In this document: piece by piece, positions 4,130-64,000 of the stretch
How the letters are laid out: each line of letters opens with the position of its first letter
Numbering within the stretch: position 1 is the first letter of the stretch
Source of the DNA: a virus
Length of the DNA: 64,000 bases
Virus record (IMG/VR): IMGVR_UViG_3300027692_000001
Strand: one strand, 5' to 3'
Notes under the pieces: generated by a model
Seen by the model: the letters and a program-made list of their open reading frames with translations, nothing else
Told to the model about the DNA's origin: nothing
Databases searched by the model: none
Position numbers and translations under genes: made by a program

Positions 4130-4386
4130 GCGCGCTGACCGATCGCGTACGTGCCCAGCAAGCGGGCGTACAGAGGCTGACCCCTGAGCAGATCAGAGAG
4201 GCCCTTGAGCGGCCGTTCAAGGAGCATGGCGACCACCCCTGGCACCAAATAGGGCGGTGCGTCTACTGCGGCCCCTGCGGCGTCAGGCTGTACCAAGGGA
4301 CGATGCCGCCCGACCATGAGGTCTACAAGCGGCCATACCAACCAACGGCCGCCGATGAGATGCTCAAGCGCTGGGGGAAGCTGTGA
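4126..4386 (+). CDS. hypothetical protein (CxxC pair)
   Basis: GTGA overlap. 86-aa ORF with CVYCGPC. Confidence 0.6.
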   Translation: MSALTDRVRAQQAGVQRLTPEQIREALERPFKEHGDHPWHQIGRCVYCGPCGVRLYQGTMPPDHEVYKRPYQPTAADEMLKRWGKL

Positions 4387-4487
4387 GGGCACTCAAGGAT
4401 CTGTGGGCCGACTCGCCCCCCCATGTGTTTATCATGGCCTTTGGTGTCGCCCTCGGGCTGGCCTTCGTGGTCAAGTGGTGCCTGTGA
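4383..4487 (+). CDS. possible 34-aa single-pass membrane peptide
   Basis: Not in the ORF track. GTGA overlaps at both ends (4383 and 4484). Sequence VRALKDLWADSPPHVFIMAFGVALGLAFVVKWCL. Confidence 0.35.
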   Translation: MRALKDLWADSPPHVFIMAFGVALGLAFVVKWCL

Positions 4488-5230
4488 GCAAGCGCACCGA
4501 CGACCTCGAGCGCCGCGTCAAGCGAGCCTGCGAGACGGCTGAACACCTCTTGGCACCCTGGGCCGGCAAAGGCACCCCTAGTGTCCTGTTCGAGTTCATG
4601 CGCCGCGGTGAGCAGCCCTTCGGAGCGGATGGGTATGCGTCGCGCTCAGCCCTGGACCCGAGCGGAGTGGGTGGCGGGAGCTCGGACATGACGAGCGTGG
4701 AGTCGGCCGCGAACAGTCGTATGCAGGATGTTTGCAAGCGCTGCGAGGGTTCGGGCAAGTTCCAAGGTCGCGCCAAGTGCAAGGCATGTGGAGGGAGTGG
4801 CAAGCGGTTCGCCGACCCGATAGGTGACGGGGTGACCGATGGGCTGCGCGAGCTGGGAGTAGCACTACGAGCCTTAGAAGTGGTGGGCGCAAAGATTGAC
4901 CTCGTGATGGGTTCAGCGGCCCGGTTCGCCGGCCGGCAGAGCACCCTTACAAACTGCGAAGTGCCGTCGTGCTCGGCCGCCATCTCAGGTGTGGGCAATG
5001 ACCGGAAGCGCTCGGGGTGCTGCCCTCGTTGCTTTTTACATCTGTCCACCTGGCGCTTGGTCCACCCGACCACCGGAGATCCCGGTGCCGACCGCCAAGC
5101 GTTCTACGCGTTCATGGCCGACTTCTTCCAACAGAAGGAGCTCAAGGCTCAGGCGCGCGCCGAGAAGGAGTCCCGCGAGATTGAGAGACTGCGCCGCAGA
5201 GGCGAGTTGCCGACAGCGAGGGCGCGATGA
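4484..5230 (+). CDS. hypothetical protein with DnaJ-type CxxCxGxG zinc-finger repeat
   Basis: GTG 4484 is coupled to the micro-ORF stop. It carries CKRCEGSGKFQGRAKCKACGGSGKR plus a second Cys cluster (CCPRC). The track ORF from 4316 would overlap two upstream genes. Confidence 0.6.
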   Translation: MSKRTDDLERRVKRACETAEHLLAPWAGKGTPSVLFEFMRRGEQPFGADGYASRSALDPSGVGGGSSDMTSVESAANSRMQDVCKRCEGSGKFQGRAKCKACGGSGKRFADPIGDGVTDGLRELGVALRALEVVGAKIDLVMGSAARFAGRQSTLTNCEVPSCSAAISGVGNDRKRSGCCPRCFLHLSTWRLVHPTTGDPGADRQAFYAFMADFFQQKELKAQARAEKESREIERLRRRGELPTARAR

Positions 5231-5535
5231 AAGAGCAGTATGACAACTTGATGGCATACTTCGATGGGGTACGGCCTGACCTCGCTGCCGACCCCATCGA
5301 GCGGGAAAGGGTGAGTCAAGCCCTGCGCCGCAATTTGAAGGCGTTTGACGATTTGGTGGAGGCGATCGACCAGGCCAAAGCCGATCCTCGTTGCTCGCGC
5401 ACTCTTGGTAGTCGCCCCGAGTGGATGAGCCCTGACCAGTACAGCCCTTGTCGGTGTCGGCGCCGTAAGGACCACGATGGGCCGCACGCTTGTGAGCATG
5501 AGTACTCAGAGCTAGTGGAGCTTTCTACCGCCTAG
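5227..5535 (+). CDS. hypothetical protein
   Basis: ATGA overlap. This 102-aa ORF is the last gene of the rightward array. Confidence 0.6.
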   Translation: MKEQYDNLMAYFDGVRPDLAADPIERERVSQALRRNLKAFDDLVEAIDQAKADPRCSRTLGSRPEWMSPDQYSPCRCRRRKDHDGPHACEHEYSELVELSTA

Positions 5536-5950
5536 CCCTCGTAACCGGGGTGAGGGGCCACCTGCTCAACCGTTCAACGTTTCGGGGAAGGTGGCCCGGC
5601 GGGAGTCCCCTTGCTTTTGGTGGAGACTTAGAGGCAGAGTCCTCCCCTACTTCTAGGAGAGAGCTTGCTTTTGGAGCCAGACTCCTCAGCTTCGCCCAAC
5701 ACGGTCGGGATATTGGCAGGTGGGCACCATGACTGGGCTCCCACCCGGACGCGCCTTGACTGGGAGGCCCCCTTACCATCGGGGTCAGGACCTGTGCGGC
5801 CTACTCGCCAGCGACTTTGAAGGGCTTCGCTGTTCCCTTGCGAACCCGTCTCGTGGGCTAGTGACGACTGTCTGCTACAGTGGCTCTCGGTTGTCGTGGT
5901 GACTACCATTGTGGCAGGTGCGGGCTGGTCACACGCGGACCAGCCCCCTG
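5536..5950 (-). ncRNA. copy A of an unclassified ~400-nt structured element (orientation inferred)
   Basis: 415-bp gap with no ORF conserved in frame. The reverse complement aligns with 59106-59532 at roughly 70 percent identity by eye, with blocks up to 17 nt (ccggacgcgccttgact). Hairpins are kept by compensatory changes. It begins with a perfect 9-bp stem (5922-5946) 4 nt after the ruvB-like stop. Confidence 0.5.
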
Positions 5951-7006
5951 CTACTCCCAAGACCTCACAAGGTCATAGCTAGGGCTGAGAGCCATACGGC
6001 CACGCGCCGTCCGGGTAATCAAGCCAGCGGCCACCATCGGCCCTTCCCTGCTCTCTAGAGCGCTTTGGTCGAGTCCCACGGCCTGACTGAGCGCTGAGAT
6101 GCCAATCGCCCGTCCTGCGAACACGGTGACCAGTGCGAGGATGATCCTTCGGTCTACCGCGTCCCACCCCGAGGGGTCGATGTCGAACGATTCCAAGGCC
6201 GCCGCGCAGTCTCCCGGTAGCACTGTCGATCGACCTTGGCAGGCCACCCAATCAAGGCACCGCTCCGACAGGTGGAGCGCGAGGCGCGGCGTGCCCTTGC
6301 ACCTCTCGGCGATGGTCGTTGGCTCAGTTGAGGCGAACACCACGCCCTTGCGTGTCCACGCGTTGGCTACAACCTGGGCCAGCTCGGCCACGCTGTAGCT
6401 CTCCATTGACAACTTGACGCCAAAGCGGGCCCTGAAGGGCTCTGGGAGCTGTCCAGGGGCCGTTGTAGCGGCCACACAGACGAAAAAGGGGAGATGTGCT
6501 ACGTGAGCCCTGGAATCGGCTCCTGAGCCCAACAGGAGGCTTACAGAGCGGTCCTCAAGGGCACCGTACAAAGTCTCCAAGACTGGCTTGGACGCGGCGT
6601 GTACTTCATCGATCAGCAGCACGTCGCCCACGGTGAGACGCAAGAGCACACCAATGAGGTCCTGGGGCCGGCGCAAGAGGGGGCCTTGGAGAACGTGCAG
6701 CTCCCCGCCGAACTCCTTCGCGATGACGTTGGCTATGGAGGTCTTGCCAAACCCGGGAGGCCCGTCGACCAATACGTGGGCCATGGGCACCCCACGCAAT
6801 ATTGACCCACGCATAACGGTTTTTAGTTGGGCCAGTAAGCTAGTTTGCCCGACCATTTCGCCCATAGTTTGAGGGCGGTTGAGGTTGGGCGGAGGTGGCA
6901 ATGGGAGGGCGGTAATATTATTCGGCGCCCCCGGAGCCTTCCTAGGTTCGGGCCTTTGGGCTCCGGTGTGCGCGTGGTGGGTAGCGCGTAGAGCCGCGCC
7001 GATCAT
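5951..7006 (-). CDS. ruvB: RuvB-like AAA+ Holliday junction branch-migration ATPase homolog
   Basis: Full-length collinear similarity to RuvB: Walker A GPPGFGKT, Walker B LLIDEVH, sensor ATT, RARFG, GTPRLA, and C-terminal winged helix ..GLITRTARGRMA. The start is set at ATG 7006 (ATGA overlap). The track start at 7267 would run through two upstream genes. Confidence 0.8.
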   Translation of the reverse strand: MIGAALRATHHAHTGAQRPEPRKAPGAPNNITALPLPPPPNLNRPQTMGEMVGQTSLLAQLKTVMRGSILRGVPMAHVLVDGPPGFGKTSIANVIAKEFGGELHVLQGPLLRRPQDLIGVLLRLTVGDVLLIDEVHAASKPVLETLYGALEDRSVSLLLGSGADSRAHVAHLPFFVCVAATTAPGQLPEPFRARFGVKLSMESYSVAELAQVVANAWTRKGVVFASTEPTTIAERCKGTPRLALHLSERCLDWVACQGRSTVLPGDCAAALESFDIDPSGWDAVDRRIILALVTVFAGRAIGISALSQAVGLDQSALESREGPMVAAGLITRTARGRMALSPSYDLVRSWE

Positions 7007-7904: not shown

Positions 7905-7933
7905 ATTGTACGCTCGCTAGACGGAGATGTCAA
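7905..7933 (-). promoter_or_regulatory. consensus sigma-A/sigma-70 promoter (leaderless transcript)
   Basis: On the minus strand: TTGACA, 17 nt, TACAAT, then 6 nt to ATG 7898. Confidence 0.6.
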
Positions 7934-11627: not shown

Positions 11628-11702
11628 AGCGGTGTGGAGTAGTGGCAACTCGTTGGGCTCATAACCCTGAGTCTCAGGTTCGATTCCTGGCCCCCGCCAC
11701 CA
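11628..11702 (+). tRNA. tRNA-Met(CAU), initiator-like, CCA encoded
   Basis: Hand-folded cloverleaf: D arm GAGU/ACUC, anticodon loop CUCAUAA (CAT at 11660-11662), GGG/CCC anticodon-stem triplet, T loop UUCGAUU, A1xC72 mismatch. It closely parallels E. coli tRNA-fMet. Imperfections are U6xC67 and one extra C after the T stem. Confidence 0.8.
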
Positions 11703-20460: not shown

Positions 20461-20492
20461 GGTCGTGTCAAGCTAGCTTACACGGAGGCCCC

Positions 20493-53392: not shown

Positions 53393-54184
53393 TCAGCCCG
53401 CCTTCAATGCCCTGATGGCCGTCCGCGCGGCCATCTGGTCCCACCCCGCGTAAATGGCAGTCGTCGCGGGTGAGGCGTGGCCGAGAACTTCTTGGACCAA
53501 GCGCAGATCATGGGTCTGCGCGTACAAGCGCGTGGCACTCCAGTGCCTTAACCGGTGGGCACCACCGAGGATGCCCAGCTTGTGCATCAACCCCCCGATC
53601 GCATGGCTCACGGCCCCCGCGCTCATCCCCCCGAACACGAATTCACCGGAGGGCTCTGGAAGCCTCGCTAAGGCTGCCAACACGTCGGGGTGGGCTGGTA
53701 TCGCGCGCTCGCGGTTGCCCTTGCCTACGACCCGCAGGAGGCCCTCGGTCAGCAGCACGTCCTCAACGCGGAGGCTGGCCACTTCGCAGCACCTCAGGCC
53801 GGCGAGACTCGCGAGCAAGATCATCGCGCGCTGCTTGGAGTTCGCCCCGTCCAACAGCCGCGTCAGTTCCTTGTCGGTGACGGGCCGGGGGAGGCGACGA
53901 CGGAGCTTCGGGGGGCGGATGCGCGCGGTGGGGTCGGACGAGAGAAGCCCCTCGCCCTGCGCCCAGCGGAAGAAGCAGCCCAAGTGGCTGAGCCACACGG
54001 CGCGTGATTTGCTCGAAAGTTCTCTCCCGTCCAGCCAGTCCTCCACCTGCTCGCGGGTGCAGTCGAAGCCGACCTGCTCGGCGAACATCAGGAGGGAGCG
54101 GCGGCGTTTGTCGATCGTCAGGACCGCCAGCCCCCGACGTTCTTGGGCTCGGGTCCACTTGCGTACCAAGTCTGTGTCCTTCAT
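53393..54184 (-). CDS. int: tyrosine integrase (XerC/D-like, short form)
   Basis: 263 aa. SAM-like N-domain plus catalytic residues in order: AGLR, KGNRER, HRLRH, LGH, and Y in TTAIY. Confidence 0.9.
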   Translation of the reverse strand: MKDTDLVRKWTRAQERRGLAVLTIDKRRRSLLMFAEQVGFDCTREQVEDWLDGRELSSKSRAVWLSHLGCFFRWAQGEGLLSSDPTARIRPPKLRRRLPRPVTDKELTRLLDGANSKQRAMILLASLAGLRCCEVASLRVEDVLLTEGLLRVVGKGNRERAIPAHPDVLAALARLPEPSGEFVFGGMSAGAVSHAIGGLMHKLGILGGAHRLRHWSATRLYAQTHDLRLVQEVLGHASPATTAIYAGWDQMAARTAIRALKAG

Positions 54185-54244: not shown

Positions 54245-54330
54245 CATGGAACTGCCCCCGGCCGTGCGATGGCGGGGGCAGTTCTGGGTCCCCTACGAGA
54301 AGGACGCACTCCCACCGTAGCAGGCTTCGC

Positions 54331-54358
54331 TTGACTGTCACACGGCTGGGTGTAAGCT
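54331..54358 (+). promoter_or_regulatory. rightward early promoter with GCTAGC-centred palindrome
   Basis: TTGACT, 16 nt, TAAGCT. The -10 lies inside GTGTAAGCTAGCTTTACAAC, which is identical to the site at 60882. Confidence 0.55.
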
Positions 54359-54392
54359 AGCTTTACAACACCCCTACGGACAGGAGACTGCA

Positions 54393-56839: not shown

Positions 56840-57988
56840 GTGGCACGCAAAGTCGAAAGGCTCACCGAAGAGCAGGAGCGCTACATGCCCGTGTTCCGGG
56901 ACGAGTGGATACGGCGCGGCTTGGCAACCGGGCCATGTGATCGTGCGGTAATCGAAGCTGCCGTGAAGAAGATGTACCGAGGTGCAGGCAAGAAGGAGCC
57001 TGGGATAATCATCTGGGTCGAGTCGCCGCTAGGCGGATGTTTGGCCGCTGGGTTGCTTAGCAACCCATCCGTGGGGACCTCCGTGGGGGACTCCGTGGGG
57101 GCCTCCGTGCGGGCCTCCGTGTGGACCTCCGGGGGGGACTCCGTGGGGGACTCCGTGTGGGACTCCGTGTGGACCTCCGTGCGGGCCTCCGTGGGGGACT
57201 CCGTGCGGGCCTCCGTGTGGACCTCCGTGCGGGACTCCGTGTGGGACTCCGTGTGGACCTCCGTGCGGGACTCCGTGGGGGACTCCGTGTGGACCTCCGG
57301 GGGGGACTCCGTGGGGGACCAAATCTACCGTGCTTGCTATGGCCAGCATGACGCGAACTGGGTTGCCTGGGCGCGGTTCCTTCAGGATGTCGGCGCGAAC
57401 GTTGGGAGCTCGGACCATGAACTCTGGTTGCGGGCTATGGATGAGATGACGGACACGAGCTGGTGGTGGCCGTTCGAGAAAGCCGTCATTCTCAGCGAAC
57501 GCCCCCTCACTCTTACCCGCGACGCCCAGGGCCGGCTCCACTCGACGACGGGCCAAGCAATCGGCTACAGCGACGGGTGGGGAGTCTGGGCCGTCCATGG
57601 CGTGCGCGTCCCGCAATGGGTCGTCGAGCAACCCGAACTCATTACGCCTGAGAAAATCCTCGCCGAACAGAACCAGGAAATCCGACGGGTAATGGTCGAA
57701 CAAATGCCGGGTGGCTGGCAACACTTCGTCGATATGGCGAAGCTCAAACTCATCGACGAGTGCCCCGACCCAGGGAACCCTCCCTATATGGTCAGGCTCT
57801 ACTCTCTTCCGGCCGCTCTAGGCAGCCACAAGCTCATTATCGTCAACAACGCCACCATCGAGCGTGACGGCTCGCGGCGTTCTTACGGCATCACCGTCAG
57901 CGCAAACTGCAAGACCGCCATGGAGGGCGCCAGTTCCACCTTCGGCCTCTCTGTCGATCAGTACAAAGAGTTAGCCCGGGCAACCTAG
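56840..57988 (+). CDS. protein with SVxx tetrapeptide tandem-repeat array and conserved C-terminal domain
   Basis: GTG after GAAAGGAACC. About 21 consecutive 4-aa units ([16 protein letters not shown]) followed by a ~220-aa globular domain. Confidence 0.65.
57066..57319 (+). repeat. 12-bp coding tandem repeat (tccgtgggggac-type)
   Basis: About 21 in-frame 12-nt units with point variation. They generate spurious repeat ORFs in other frames and on the other strand. Confidence 0.85.
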
Positions 57989-58447: not shown

Positions 58448-58543
58448 ATGGACCGCTGCGGCGGCGTTAGCGTCCCGTCTCGCACCGCCTTGGTCAAGCG
58501 CATCGACGCCTTCCTCAAAGCGACTGTGAGGGACCACGCGTGA
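58448..58543 (+). CDS. possible 31-aa protein
   Basis: Not in the track. The end forms a GTGA overlap with the next ORF. Confidence 0.3.
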   Translation: MDRCGGVSVPSRTALVKRIDAFLKATVRDHA

Positions 58544-58716
58544 CCCTCTCCATCTCCCCCACCCGCTCAGGGCTCACCACCACGATTGTCTGCCTGAAGT
58601 GCGAGCACTTCGCCGACGAGCCCCAGCCAGCGTGGATCGACACGAATGGCGACGTCTACTTCCAGGGCGAGTCATGGGAGGACTTGGTGTTCTTCGGGGA
58701 GCGCCACCGAGAATGA
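58540..58716 (+). CDS. possible 58-aa protein
   Basis: Not in the track. GTGA at the start and ATGA at the end. Good GC3. Confidence 0.45.
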   Translation: MTLSISPTRSGLTTTIVCLKCEHFADEPQPAWIDTNGDVYFQGESWEDLVFFGERHRE

Positions 58717-59105
58717 CCAGCGCCGATGCCACCCGGAAGAAGGAACCGACCAGGGCCAGAGACAGAGCCTTCGCGCGTGGCGAAGCACTGGCGCGGCTCG
58801 CAGCCCGGTACCCCGACGAGTTTGAGGCTCTTTACGCTGAGGAGCGGCAGCGCCTTGGGCTGCCTCCGGTTGACCGCGACGCCCGGAACTTTGTCGACGC
58901 GCAACTCCTACGTCTCGTCCGCGCTGACCCCTCTCCCGGCCTAGAGGCGGCGGCGCTCGCTACGGGGCTCTCCACGGAGGGCGCTCGTCAGGGGCTGATG
59001 CGACTGGTCGCGGCCGGGAGCCTCCGTATCGTGCCCACTGCCAAGAGCGGAAGGAGTGGGAGGAAGCGTACGACCTACGCCGTAACGCAGAGAGCCGGTC
59101 CTTGA
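58713..59105 (+). CDS. winged-helix (MarR-like) DNA-binding protein
   Basis: ATGA-coupled start (the track start at 58599 overlaps the upstream ORF). C-terminal ..LSTEGARQGLMRLVAAGSLRIV.. is a wHTH-like segment. Confidence 0.55.
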   Translation: MTSADATRKKEPTRARDRAFARGEALARLAARYPDEFEALYAEERQRLGLPPVDRDARNFVDAQLLRLVRADPSPGLEAAALATGLSTEGARQGLMRLVAAGSLRIVPTAKSGRSGRKRTTYAVTQRAGP

Positions 59106-59532
59106 CAGGGCCGGCTCTATCTGGTTACGCTTGGTTCGCTGACAACCAAGAGCCACCCTAGCACAGACGGGTCGTTTAGTCCACGAGACGGATTCACACG
59201 GAGCGCCGGGCCCGTCAGCCGGCGGCGAGTTGGGAGCACAGACCCTGATCCCGATGGCAAGGGAAGCCCTCAAGTCAAGGCGCGTCCGGTGCGAGGCCCA
59301 GTCAGCAGCTTCCCTACCAACATCCCGACCGTGTGGTGACGCTGACGACTTGGCTCCAAAAGCGAAAACCTCTCCTAACACTAGGGGAGGGTTCTGCCTC
59401 TAACTCTCACCAAAAGCGATCAGGGAGAACCGAAGCAACCACCTCTTAGGTGTAGCATCGCCAACCACCAAAAAGAAGCGGACCTGAGGCTTCCCCACCC
59501 CAGGCCCGCCCTAGACAGAGGAGGCATCCCTC
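59106..59532 (+). ncRNA. copy B of the unclassified ~400-nt structured element
   Basis: 427-bp ORF-poor gap. Collinear with the reverse complement of 5536-5950. An 8-bp stem (59091-59118) encloses the upstream stop codon. Contains TTGACA, 18 nt, TACGCT at 59102-59131. Confidence 0.5.
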
Positions 59533-59880
59533 TTGACAGCGACTTTACCATTACCACTCGCATTGCCCCCCAAACGCGAGCGCCCTGGTATCCCCCCCGA
59601 CTTCGTTCCTTCCAGAGACAGCCTCTTGTGGGCCGCTGGGCGCGGGTACGACCGCCTCGACCTGGACTACGAGAACGAGCAGTTCGTCCTCTACCACCTC
59701 GGTCACGCGACCAAGTGGAAAAGCTGGGACCTCGCGTGGCGGAGCTGGATCGCGCGCTCAGCCCACGACAAGGCTTCGGCCCTGAACGTGGGGCGTCCTT
59801 CGTCGGGCCTTGTCCCCTCCCGGCCTGCTCAGGTCGATGGCCGCGGCTTCCTCAGGAGAGATGATGTCCCCGAAGCCTGA
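59533..59880 (+). CDS. hypothetical Trp-rich protein
   Basis: TTG lies 7 nt after GAGGAGG. 115 aa. Confidence 0.55.
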   Translation: MTATLPLPLALPPKRERPGIPPDFVPSRDSLLWAAGRGYDRLDLDYENEQFVLYHLGHATKWKSWDLAWRSWIARSAHDKASALNVGRPSSGLVPSRPAQVDGRGFLRRDDVPEA

Positions 59881-60542: not shown

Positions 60543-60874
60543 AGCGCTCACCCCTTCGGCGGATCTCGGAGAAGCGCAAGGCGCAGCTCCCAGCGCGCCG
60601 CAAGTGCGTCCAGGTGGTGCTTGAGAGGGACAAGGTGTGCCAGTTTCAGCCGCGCCTTGAGGCCTACTGGCGCGAGAACGGCCTGGACGCGTACAAGCAG
60701 CTTGTGGCGGGCCTCCCCCTCCATGACTGCTGGGGCCCTCTGGACGTGCATGAACCGGGCCACCGCTCGCAGGGGGCTGATCCAACCGACCCCGCGGCAT
60801 GTGTTCTCGTTTGCAGGGGGCATCACGACTTCCTGCACTCCCGACCTCTGATCGCTAAAGCCTTGACTCTCTGA
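60539..60874 (+). CDS. HNH endonuclease
   Basis: GTGA overlap. ...[32 protein letters not shown] fits the HNH (H-N/H-H) core of phage gp74-like nucleases. Confidence 0.6.
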
Positions 60875-60890
60875 CGCCGAAGTGTAAGCT
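60863..60890 (+). promoter_or_regulatory. early promoter with GCTAGC-centred palindrome (second copy)
   Basis: TTGACT, 16 nt, TAAGCT within GTGTAAGCTAGCTTTACAAC, followed by the leader CCCCTACGAAACGAGGACC and ATG 60922. Confidence 0.55.
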
Positions 60891-60921
60891 AGCTTTACAA
60901 CCCCTACGAAACGAGGACCCC

Positions 60922-61596
60922 ATGACTGTCACCGAGACAAAGGCCCCACCCTTCGGGGTGGAGCACGTCAAGGTCGTGTGCCGCGACATCCTTCTCCCGC
61001 CAGATACCGACCCAGAGGTTTTGCTCTGGGGCTTCCGCCTGAACGGCTTGGACATGGTTTCAAGCCATGAGTACCGCTGGCCGTTCCCTGGCCGCTGGGC
61101 CGAGGCTACAGGGCCGTTTACCGAAGGTGGGGACGGGTGCCCTACCGCCGAGGGCGATGGACTATGCGTGGCGAAGACAATTGAGGGCTCGCAGTCTGGC
61201 AACGGTCGGTTCGGAAAATCTCTCGGGCTGCTTATTGCTTACCTGCCTGGCGACCTGTTGGCTGAGTCGAGTCACAAGCTGAGGGTCAAGAAGGCATGGG
61301 TAGCGGATGTGTTCGATCCAGTACGGGCATTGCTCCTGTCCAGGGCCAACCTGTCCAGGGCCAACCTGTCCGGGGCCGACCTGTACGGGGCCGACCTGTA
61401 CGGGGCCGACCTGTACAGGGCCAACCTGTCCGGGGCCAACCTGTCCGGGGCCAACCTGTCCAGGGCCAACCTGTCCGGGGCCGACCTGTCCGGGGCCAAC
61501 CTGTCCGGGGCCAACCTGTCCGGGGCCACTTACAGCCAGGGCACTCTCTGGCCCGCGAACTTCGATTTCTCAAGCAAAGGGGCGGTGAAGATATGA
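60922..61596 (+). CDS. pentapeptide-repeat protein
   Basis: The C-terminal half is about 13 consecutive A(N/D)L(S/Y)(G/R) pentapeptides. The N-terminal ~135 aa is unique. Confidence 0.8.
61336..61530 (+). repeat. 15-bp coding tandem repeat (gccaacctgtccggg-type)
   Basis: Near-identical 15-nt units encoding the pentapeptide repeats. They give long spurious ORFs in all other frames. Confidence 0.85.
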
Positions 61597-62994: not shown

Positions 62995-63311
62995 TCTGCG
63001 ACGCGAAGATCCGTCCGTTCACGGACGACACCGAACTCACCTGCGAGTGCCCCCACGTTGACGAGTTGGACGGGTCGTCTGAGCACCACTCAACCCTGCG
63101 GGACTACGCGTTCCCCGGTTCAGCGACGACGATCTACGCGTTCCCCGGTTCAGCGACGACGATCTACTGGGCCGAGGACGACCGCCGTAATTTTCGCGGC
63201 GAGTACCCAGGCCGATGCGACGCAGCTACGCCCACTTGGCCTGACGGTTTGCCGGGGGAGACTCGCCCCTGTGTGCTGCCGGCTGGTCATCGAGGGGGGC
63301 ACGCGCGATGA
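62991..63311 (+). CDS. hypothetical protein with internal 10-aa duplication
   Basis: GTGA overlap. YAFPGSATTI occurs twice in tandem. Confidence 0.55.
   Translation: MICDAKIRPFTDDTELTCECPHVDELDGSSEHHSTLRDYAFPGSATTIYAFPGSATTIYWAEDDRRNFRGEYPGRCDAATPTWPDGLPGETRPCVLPAGHRGGHAR
63104..63163 (+). repeat. perfect 30-bp tandem duplication
   Basis: ctacgcgttccccggttcagcgacgacgat occurs twice, back to back. Confidence 0.9.
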
Positions 63312-63580: not shown

Positions 63581-64000
63581 GCGCCGATCCGATTGGTATG
63601 TGGGTGGGTACCACGGACGCCTACGACACGGTGGACTGCTGTCACCTCCCACGCGTCCCTGAACCTGGCGAGGGGATCACCTACATCTGCCCCCGAGGTC
63701 ACCGCTGGGAGTTCCGTCCGAACCCAGCCCCGAGGAGCTTCATGGCCGAACTTACGACCGTTCGGTACGCGCACGGTCAACCGGTCGGGCGTTGGGCCAC
63801 CCTTGACCGCTGGCGGCGTTCCCTGCCCTTGTGTTGGTGGTTGCTCTACGACGCCTTGGTCGGGGTCGCCCTCCTCTTGGCTTGGTGGCACCCTTGGGCC
63901 GCCCTCATTGTTGGAATCCCGTGGCTGGGCATAGCGGCGTTCATCGACCTGATTGAGTACATGGTGAAGTCGGGTCGGGCTAGCGAGCGAGGAAGCGACC
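63577..64000 (+). CDS. hypothetical membrane protein (3' partial at window edge)
   Basis: GTGA overlap. The frame stays open to the end of the window. CCH..CPRGH motif followed by hydrophobic segments. Confidence 0.5.
   Translation, partial: MSADPIGMWVGTTDAYDTVDCCHLPRVPEPGEGITYICPRGHRWEFRPNPAPRSFMAELTTVRYAHGQPVGRWATLDRWRRSLPLCWWLLYDALVGVALLLAWWHPWAALIVGIPWLGIAAFIDLIEYMVKSGRASERGSD

Follow-up and report, generated by a model that had tools for sequence, protein, structure and literature searches.

The Element and Its Copies

This analysis concerns a sequence element that occurs twice in a 64,000-nt stretch of viral DNA (IMG/VR record IMGVR_UViG_3300027692_000001), here called the window, which belongs to a temperate, actinophage-like genome with 63% GC. 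Copy B, which runs from a first hairpin (H1) through a last one (Hj), occupies positions 59087-59431 on the plus strand, between a gene for a 130-aa protein (58713-59105, +) and a gene for a 115-aa protein (59533-59880, +). Copy A is inverted relative to B and occupies positions 5604-5952 on the minus strand, downstream of a ruvB homolog (probably 5951-6937, -; its open reading frame (ORF) stays open to 7267). The conserved part is about 345 nt long, and the two copies lie about 11 kb apart on opposite strands, in the early replication/recombination region of the genome. A third copy, C, was found at 6307-6660 (+) of a 16.7-kb contig (L013) from a different temperate phage, which also carries an integrase. 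The three known copies, distributed over two temperate actinophage genomes, appear to define a new family of strand-specific, folded non-coding elements.

A preliminary description of the window, made by reading its letters, had proposed that the two loci are duplicates, and the duplication is real. Local alignment of 59141-59418 (+) with 5895-5613 (-) gave 77% identity over 291 columns with 16 small indels, blastn of copy A against copy B returned an E-value (E) of 1e-43, and a profile hidden Markov model (HMM) matched exactly two places in the window (59087-59431, +, and 5952-5604, -). In nhmmer searches the three-copy HMM recovered B at E 3e-102 and C at E 1e-112, and A was recovered at E 6e-106. 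Identity was 76-80% between A and C and 67-72% between B and either of the others (70-72% for B and C). A and C resemble each other more than they resemble B, which argues that A and B are old paralogs or separate acquisitions and not the product of a recent duplication. The functional strand that had been suggested, plus at B and minus at A, is that of the local genes, and the same holds for copy C. Structure and covariation are kept across the copies, as described below, which favors the earlier view of a repeated functional module over a random duplication.

Copy C was found by a protein search seeded with a spurious 110-aa ORF over copy A, which returned P0018, a spurious 137-aa ORF over copy C; repeating the search with a profile returned nothing further. 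No similarity to the element was found by blastn in 50,697 phage records, and no homolog beyond copy C appeared in scans of IMG/VR (by DNA pattern and protein-seeded), of GTDB genomes and of metagenomes, although these scans are weak and the metagenome set evidently lacks a contig (L010) that bears copy B. Pattern matches in three contigs (L001, L011 and L012) were rejected as chance, there being no homology outside the pattern blocks, and a marginal nhmmer match at 20171-20235 of contig L002 (E 0.1) was likewise judged to be chance.

Anatomy and Conserved Fold

The element opens with hairpin H1, which in copy B (59088-59124, +) has an outer CAG/CTG stem and an inner stem in which AGAGCCGG(TCC) at 59091-59101 pairs with (GGG)CCGGCTCT at 59108-59118. 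The last codons of the 130-aa gene lie within the 5' arm, and the loop contains TTGACA together with the TGA stop of that gene (59103-59105). In copy A (5914-5951, -) the hairpin begins at the ruvB stop codon with an outer GCAGG/CCTGC stem, and its inner stem, GGGCTGGTC (5946-5938) paired with GACCAGCCC (5930-5922), starts 4 nt past the TAG (5953-5951). These opening stems, and their placement relative to the two stop codons, are present as first described. Copy C has the homologous hairpin at 6308-6346 of its contig, with compensatory changes across A, B and C. H1 carries no U tract in A or B, as had been noted, nor in C, and scans of the sense strand for intrinsic terminators list nothing there; it is possible that the hairpin acts as a terminator without a U tract.

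The H1 region of copy B also holds a promoter-like TTGACA-18-TACGCT (59102-59131, +), pointed out in the preliminary description. The motif exists, and copy C has TTGACT-18-CAAGAT at the matching position, so that TTGAC is common to the H1 loops of B and C, each followed at a distance of 18 nt by a -10-like hexamer; as a promoter, however, the motif of copy B did not pass a consensus scan, and neither did any other sequence in the element copies. Copy A lacks an equivalent, as had been stated, having no -35.

Downstream of H1, a long-range helix predicted by RNAalifold joins GAGCCA at 59150-59155 to TGGCTC at 59351-59356 (+; in copy A, 5886-5881 with 5679-5674). This helix is invariant in all three copies and hence yields no covariation evidence. 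It encloses a series of hairpins that do covary. Hairpin Ha (59178-59194, +; copy A 5859-5843) presents an invariant ACGAGAC loop on stems that read AGUCC/GGAUU, AGCCC/GGGUU and GGCCU/AGGCC, with double compensatory changes at three of the five pairs. Hairpin Hc (59204-59224, +; copy A 5832-5809) is CGCCGG/CCGGCG in B, CAGCGA/TCGCTG in A and CGGTGA/TCACCG in C (the latter two CAGCGA/UCGCUG and CGGUGA/UCACCG as RNA), and four of its six positions covary once the indel of copy B is correctly placed. The combined stem Hi and Hf (59260-59315, +; copy A 5773-5718) carries an invariant 16-nt loop, GTCAAGGCGCGTCCGG. Double changes occur in four of the six pairs of Hf, whose variants CCUC/GAGG, CUCCCA/UGGGAG and CUCUCG/CGAGAG surround the invariant loop GUCAAGGCGCGUCCGG, and one pair of Hi appears as A-U, G.U and G-C. 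A small hairpin, Hd (59249-59264, +), is a mutually exclusive alternative to Hi.

The 3' part of the element (59356-59419, +, in copy B) has its lowest GC content, 0.52-0.58 compared with 0.63 overall. Here two direct repeats (59356-59365 and 59410-59419) flank hairpin Hh (59369-59390, +), and the second repeat forms the loop of hairpin Hj (59404-59427, +). The repeats are 10-11 nt long and 54-56 nt apart; they are identical within a copy and different between copies, being CCAAAAGCGA twice in B, CCAAAAGCAAG twice in A (5674-5664 and 5620-5610) and CCAAAGCGAA twice in C, with a degenerate third in B. Such concerted change is the pattern that would be expected of iteron-like sites for a single co-evolving binder. 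Read antisense, the repeats become GCTTTTGG runs that follow hairpins in a terminator-like manner, and in copy A these units face the plus-strand operon ending at 5535. Beyond the conserved part, each of the two window copies is followed by a GC hairpin of its own, and the two are not homologous. The one distal to B (59476-59511) is followed on the minus strand by CTTTTTGG. Reading on that strand, with 15 pairs, it is stronger than any other terminator-like hairpin of the last 20 kb, although the genes on both sides of it are on the plus strand and no minus-strand transcript that it could stop is apparent. The one distal to A (5555-5597; GGGCCACCT/AGGTGGCCC) lies between the element and the convergent gene 5227-5535.

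Every copy has canonical pairing, at corresponding positions, in nine helices (H1 outer, H1 inner, the long-range GAGCCA/UGGCUC, Ha, Hc, Hd or Hi, Hf, Hh and Hj); the helices were trimmed to canonical pairs, so that the count of zero A.C cells holds by construction. With copies A and B alone, alifold z-scores were not significant. With three copies, RNAalifold on the full element gave a column-shuffle z of -5.4 for the strand co-oriented with the genes (none of 150 shuffles scored as low) compared with -3.7 for the other strand, and the core gave -2.8 in the sense (0/150) against -1.5 in the antisense direction (13/150). Covariation in the core was measured over four helices, using a MAFFT alignment made without reference to structure. 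In this alignment 91.7% of core cells were paired, compared with 34-51% when partners were slid by 1-3 columns, and 10 of 25 core pairs had changed on both sides, compared with 0-2 when slid. Shuffling gave 4.0 +/- 1.5 double changes, and none of 500 shuffles reached the observed 10. Substituting Hd for Hi left this picture unchanged. The sense strand contains 12 G.U cells, and the interior wobbles of Hh and Hj, kept in all copies, become C.A mismatches on the opposite strand.

The maintenance of hairpins through compensating mutations argues for a genuine folded element, acting as RNA or as single-stranded DNA, and the retention of invariant loops and compensatory stems by copies that have diverged by 23-33% points to purifying selection. 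The z-scores and covariation bear out the earlier impression of a highly structured element. The fold matches no described family: at the gathering threshold, Rfam 15 reported only a tRNA-Met in the whole window, and permissive scans of A, B and C returned chance hits only (E 0.6-9, with bit scores far under the cut-offs).

Non-Coding Character

The element is non-coding, because its copies differ by indels, show no codon periodicity and show no rise of GC content at third codon positions (GC3). Across the 291 columns there are 16 frame shifts from indels between A and B, and mismatches fall on the three codon positions at rates of 0.21, 0.12 and 0.18. GC3 of the ORFs lying over the element is 0.59-0.62, whereas that of neighboring genes is 0.70-0.86. 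Furthermore, copy B has stop codons in every frame, and the conserved nucleotides fall in different reading frames in different copies (LPYQHPDRG as against PPANIPTVL).

The Downstream Gene and a Possible Link to Replication

The more consistent neighbor of the element, at B and at C, is the gene that follows it. The 115-aa product of the gene directly after copy B is read here as a stand-alone C-terminal (DnaT-like) domain of actinophage replication initiators, and the gene directly after copy C (6662-6955 of L013, 97 aa) is homologous to it. In tblastn comparisons both matched gp46 of Gordonia phage Schmidt, annotated as a replication initiation protein (E 4e-7 for the gene after B and 2e-9 for the gene after C). 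The gene after C additionally matched gp70 of Curtobacterium phage Kithara, a RepA-like replication initiator (E 1e-12), the PHROG families 'primosomal protein' and 'replication initiation protein' (E about 3e-4), and, in the related contig L002, a 228-aa protein whose gene precedes that of DnaB (56% identity, E 5e-25).

These initiator relatives all possess an extra N-terminal domain of about 125-170 aa that the genes after B and C lack. In Arthrobacter phages Zucker and BrayBeast a methyltransferase gene is followed by a full-length initiator (about 270 aa) and, in BrayBeast only, by a helicase loader. In the contig of copy C a methylase gene is followed by a 461-nt gap containing the element and then by the gene for the C-terminal domain alone. 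This comparison of gene order indicates that the element stands where the N-terminal domain is coded, and the copy C element thus seems to occupy the place of that coding region. No frame of the element resembles the N-terminal domains of the initiators of Schmidt, Kithara, Zucker, BrayBeast or L002 in translated comparison. A decayed N-terminal domain was rejected on that absence of similarity to all five.

A Candidate Replication-Initiation Element

The element is probably part of the machinery that starts DNA replication rather than of the genes upstream of it. The role that we favor, with a probability of roughly 40%, is that of a cis-acting replication-initiation element, which may be a structure- or RNA-based origin or a primosome-assembly signal. 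The proposal builds on features that can be read directly, namely the homology of the copies, their non-coding nature, the strand bias of their structure, gene neighborhoods and synteny; it would add to them that the element is transcribed, bound by protein and active in replication. Early transcription would cross the element in the sense direction, and the conserved hairpins would form in the transcript or else in the sense DNA strand that an R-loop displaces, which has the same sequence. Phage proteins might then recognize the invariant loops (ACGAGAC, GAUGGYAA and GUCAAGGCGCGUCCGG) and the paired 10-11-nt repeats, the foremost candidate reader being the DnaT-like protein encoded just downstream, which has the initiator C-terminal domain without the origin-binding N-terminal domain. 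The host helicase or primosome would be recruited as a result, with the opposite-strand copies serving two directions. A more specific version, in which a folded element of about 345 nt has replaced the N-terminal origin-binding domain, is read by the stand-alone DnaT-like protein and launches two forks from its two copies, strikes us as rather doubtful.

Several observations weigh against a role in replication initiation. The match of the gene after B to Pfam DnaT is weak (E 0.049), a profile of the initiator C-terminal domain gave no DnaT match against the PDB, and neither the window nor L013 yielded a homolog of a helicase or loader. No initiator gene lies beside copy A, which ends the ruvB operon and faces a convergent gene. 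At copy C, the GGGGG that resembles a Shine-Dalgarno (SD) sequence for the downstream gene is one arm of Hj, an arrangement that suits a translational leader equally well. As an origin, the element is poor in the usual signals: its repeats are short and number just two or three, it has no clear AT-rich unwinding region and no DnaA boxes, and GC skew in the window tracks gene orientation and gives no origin signal. Both transcription of the element and a single-stranded state of either of its strands have to be supposed. Finally, covariation among three sequences cannot reach formal significance, and the helices were drawn from the same three sequences that test them.

If the structure holds up, the element would represent a new large non-coding family (about 345 nt, at least eight helices) in actinobacterial phages, where few are known. 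Its arrangement is unusual in that it seems to replace the origin-recognition half of an initiator in gene order and is duplicated on the opposite strand 11 kb away. If the more specific version also proved true, this would be a lytic origin specified by structure or RNA, a kind not described for tailed phages; the arrangement itself offers the testable idea that some temperate actinophages specify initiation by a folded RNA or single strand and not by a DNA-binding domain. The significance is limited by the size of the family, three copies in two uncultured phages.

Comparison with Known Systems

Among known systems, the favored replication-initiation element may be compared with ssi or primosome assembly signals, such as the n' site of phiX174, the ColE1 pas and ssiA and ssiB of RSF1010, and with R-loop origins, such as ColE1 RNA II and oriF and oriG of T4. 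With these it would share strand-specific hairpins, recognized loops, copies on opposite strands, a link to DnaT/PriA-type proteins and an active form exposed by transcription. The strand-specific hairpins looked for in an ssi signal are present here and are conserved by compensatory change. Known ssi signals, however, measure about 40-120 nt, whereas the conserved unit here is about 345 nt with at least eight helices and has no recognized PriA-type or primase partner.

Duplicated origins and enhancers form a second group, which includes oriL and oriR of SPP1, ori and crr of P4, and the lambda ori inside gene O. The parallel lies in one copy at the initiator gene, a second kilobases away, and short repeats, which in those systems are bound by the initiator. 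In the present element the features of an iteron origin amount to two 10-11-nt repeats, with a degenerate third in B, in the part of lowest GC, and to an initiator-domain gene that adjoins B and C but not A. The SPP1, P4 and lambda origins are double-stranded iteron arrays, in which we know of no evidence of compensatory base-pair evolution; unlike them, the element has just two or three short repeats, and what is conserved is a folded single strand.

The nutL/nutR sites of lambda and putL/putR of HK022 are about 20-70 nt long, lie just downstream of early promoters and allow terminator read-through. They resemble the element in comprising two homologous copies of opposite orientation, each co-oriented with its own operon, and in consisting, as the element may, of folded RNA within a transcript. 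Copy A differs in lying at the very end of its operon, where antitermination serves no purpose.

A close analogy within actinobacteriophages is offered by the cluster A mycobacteriophages Alma, LadyBird and RedRock, whose prophage origins are non-coding, RNA-expressing regions of 400-500 bp (Wetzel et al. 2020, PMC7157519). Those origins adjoin parABS in phages without an integrase and serve plasmid-like prophage replication (PMC7157519). The likeness extends to the type of host phage, to a non-coding region without an ORF of its own, to a proposed RNA and to the lack of an attached RepA-type origin-binding protein. The differences are that an integrase is present here (53393-54184, -, in the window, and in L013 as well) and that there are two inverted copies. 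No sequence similarity was found between the element and deposited phages, including those of Wetzel et al. If the structure is borne out, such elements would have practical value as compact replicon parts in Actinobacteria, a use to which the RNA-based origins of mycobacteriophages have already been put.

Alternative Explanations

The alternative that survives best, though it is still unlikely, is a trans-acting or autonomous structured non-coding RNA unrelated to replication, which might sequester a host factor or act in anti-defense or immunity and would arise from a weak promoter in H1 or by processing of early transcripts. A strand-biased conserved structure with invariant loops is what such an RNA would show, as are the TTGAC of the B and C H1 loops and the -10-like hexamer behind it, the GC hairpin after each copy and the varied gene contexts (ruvB, methylase and the 130-aa gene). 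However, no promoter passes the consensus scan and copy A has no -35, the sense strand offers no U-tract terminator, the phage has no sequence complementary to the repeats at any other place, and no Rfam family matches. An internal promoter on the opposite strand was rejected by eye: CTTGACT is conserved there, but it lies only 12-13 nt from any -10-like hexamer.

A cis-regulatory leader RNA, that is, a translational or transcriptional attenuator or a sensor controlling the initiator-domain gene with copy A as an orphan or retired duplicate, is in our estimate rather improbable. It would account for the position of B and C directly before homologous genes and for the SD-like GGGGG of copy C, which lies 4-8 nt before the ATG at 6662 and coincides with the 3' arm of Hj. 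In copy B, however, about 100 nt separate the conserved part from the start codon, which is served by a GAGGAGG of its own. No gene follows copy A in the sense direction, yet A is the copy that has stayed more similar to C (76-80% identity, against 70-72% for B). A length of 345 nt is large for a leader, and no riboswitch or leader family matched.

The preliminary description had read the element as a long structured 3' untranslated region (UTR), or a processed RNA, of a DNA-transaction gene upstream, reached by read-through of the first stem, which has no U tract. In favor of this are the stop codons of co-oriented genes, at or within which A and B begin, first stems without U tracts, and a copy C that is also co-oriented with its upstream gene. 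The gene upstream of A is a RuvB homolog, as had been said (Pfam RuvB_N at 3.6e-43, with AAA_lid_4 and RuvB_C; relatives are about 300-355 aa long), and it ends, together with copy A, a short minus-strand operon headed by a promoter-like TTGACA-17-TACAAT (7905-7933, -; 11 of 12 positions match the consensus). The gene that ends at 59105 is likewise real and starts at 58713: a longer ORF from 58599 overlaps the real upstream gene (58540-58716), which the 130-aa gene meets by an ATGA overlap. Its supposed winged-helix nature is unproven, since the protein has no Pfam or PHROG match and its AlphaFold model has a predicted local distance difference test (pLDDT) score of 50, too low for a fold search; only the helix-helix-strand-strand order at the C terminus fits a winged helix.

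Gene neighborhoods in relatives tell against the 3' UTR. Relatives of RuvB were found at 54-96% identity, and at ten loci of such relatives (L002-L007, L013 and L016-L018) nothing homologous to the element follows ruvB. In three of them (L004, L005 and L006) the ruvB stop is convergent with a homolog of the window gene 4316-5230, about 10-60 nt away. Compared with L004 and L005, the window has about 745 extra nt between the ruvB stop and that gene, comprising gene 5227-5535 (102 aa) and the stretch 5536-5956 with copy A; the difference is a mosaic block, as opposed to the element having been cleanly inserted. In L007, whose RuvB is 96% identical, homology ends at the stop codon. The sole relative of the 130-aa gene (L008, 84% identity) has a WhiB gene directly after it, and its nucleotide similarity to the window stops at position 59076, just short of H1. 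Copy C is preceded by a C5 DNA methylase gene, with a 108-nt spacer and a separate hairpin in between. The three upstream genes are unrelated to one another, and the element is gained and lost independently of them. The positional association with ruvB-like or winged-helix genes that the preliminary description had expected in other genomes was not found, and its absence largely refutes the 3' UTR, which we consider improbable.

We regard it as similarly improbable that the element is selfish or in decay, whether as a small non-autonomous mobile element or as an eroded initiator N-terminal region, with function limited to terminator hairpins. Orthologous sites in the closest relatives lack the element, which is consistent with gain and loss as a module, it stands in place of the N-terminal-domain coding region, and in copy A the antisense hairpin and GCTTTTGG units could terminate the plus-strand operon ending at 5535. 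Nevertheless, there are no terminal inverted repeats, target duplications or near-identical copies, and copies that differ at 23-33% of positions keep invariant loops and compensatory stems. The lack of translated similarity to initiator N-terminal domains speaks against erosion, and the hairpins of the opposite strand carry interior C.A mismatches.

Several more specific identities were rejected. A miniature inverted-repeat transposable element or insertion sequence, including one of mycobacteriophage mobile element (MPME) type, does not fit: the only end-proximal direct repeat, the 8-nt CTTGACAG (59101 and 59532), is at chance level and not in A, the copies are just 67-80% identical, and the 'empty' site of L004 and L005 also lacks gene 5227-5535, so that there is no clean excision. 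An array of opposite-strand terminators is plausible for copy A only, as B is flanked by plus-strand genes, and it too meets the interior C.A mismatches. Rfam gave no match to a group I or group II intron core even at E <= 10. The flanks of the element are not gene halves, ruvB being complete and copy C following a complete methylase gene, and a gene split into the 130-aa gene, the element and the C-terminal domain was likewise dismissed, as the L008 ortholog ends at the same point with WhiB next.

A small protein-coding gene, for example the 110-aa ORF at 5628-5960 (-) or P0018 over copy C, would account for same-frame ORFs over A and C with 52% identity over 83 aa, but it is rejected as highly improbable, given the stops in that frame in B, the frame-shifting indels, the different frames of the conserved nucleotides, codon statistics with no elevated GC3, and the absence of a Pfam domain.

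Other Features of the Genomes

The window is nearly all of a 65,271-bp contig (ENA ERZ27313991 k141_1344615; 100% identity) that joins window position 64000 to position 1 through 1,130 nt absent from the window. The same phage is also present, at 100% identity, in a JGI soil metagenome (L010). Its host is probably an actinobacterium similar to Arthrobacter or Nocardioides. The structural module spans about 13.9-52 kb, and nucleotide similarity to deposited phages is limited to the portal gene of Arthrobacter phages (about 72-76% over about 200 nt). A tRNA-Met (CAT) gene at 11629-11698 is the sole Rfam or ARAGORN match in the window.

Among the relatives compared, the ruvB homolog of L013 (14224-15187, -) consists of two ORFs separated by a 52-nt gap, one coding for the lid and winged-helix domains and the other for the P-loop domain, which may stem from a frameshift or an assembly error or may be a genuine split. 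Contig L016 has two gene-free gaps 3' of ruvB, at 1062-1352 (290 nt) and 1653-2277 (624 nt). Neither is homologous to the element, and a different non-coding element may be present there.

Other repeats occur in the window. A 20-nt near-palindrome, GTGTAAGCTAGCTTTACAAC, is found three times (54330-54372, 60862-60904 and 20464-20483, the last on the minus strand) with none expected by chance, and two of the three copies sit 13 nt downstream of CTTGACT; these sites look like repressor operators overlapping early promoters of a temperate phage. The DUF6745 gene holds 12-nt tandem repeats (57020-57367), and those at 61320-61573, with a 15-nt unit, correspond to a pentapeptide-repeat protein. At 63104-63163 a 30-nt unit is duplicated in perfect tandem. 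Finally, a 39-nt repeat occurs three times (62968, 63285 and 63554), each time just 5' of a gene start, and is possibly a start-associated sequence.

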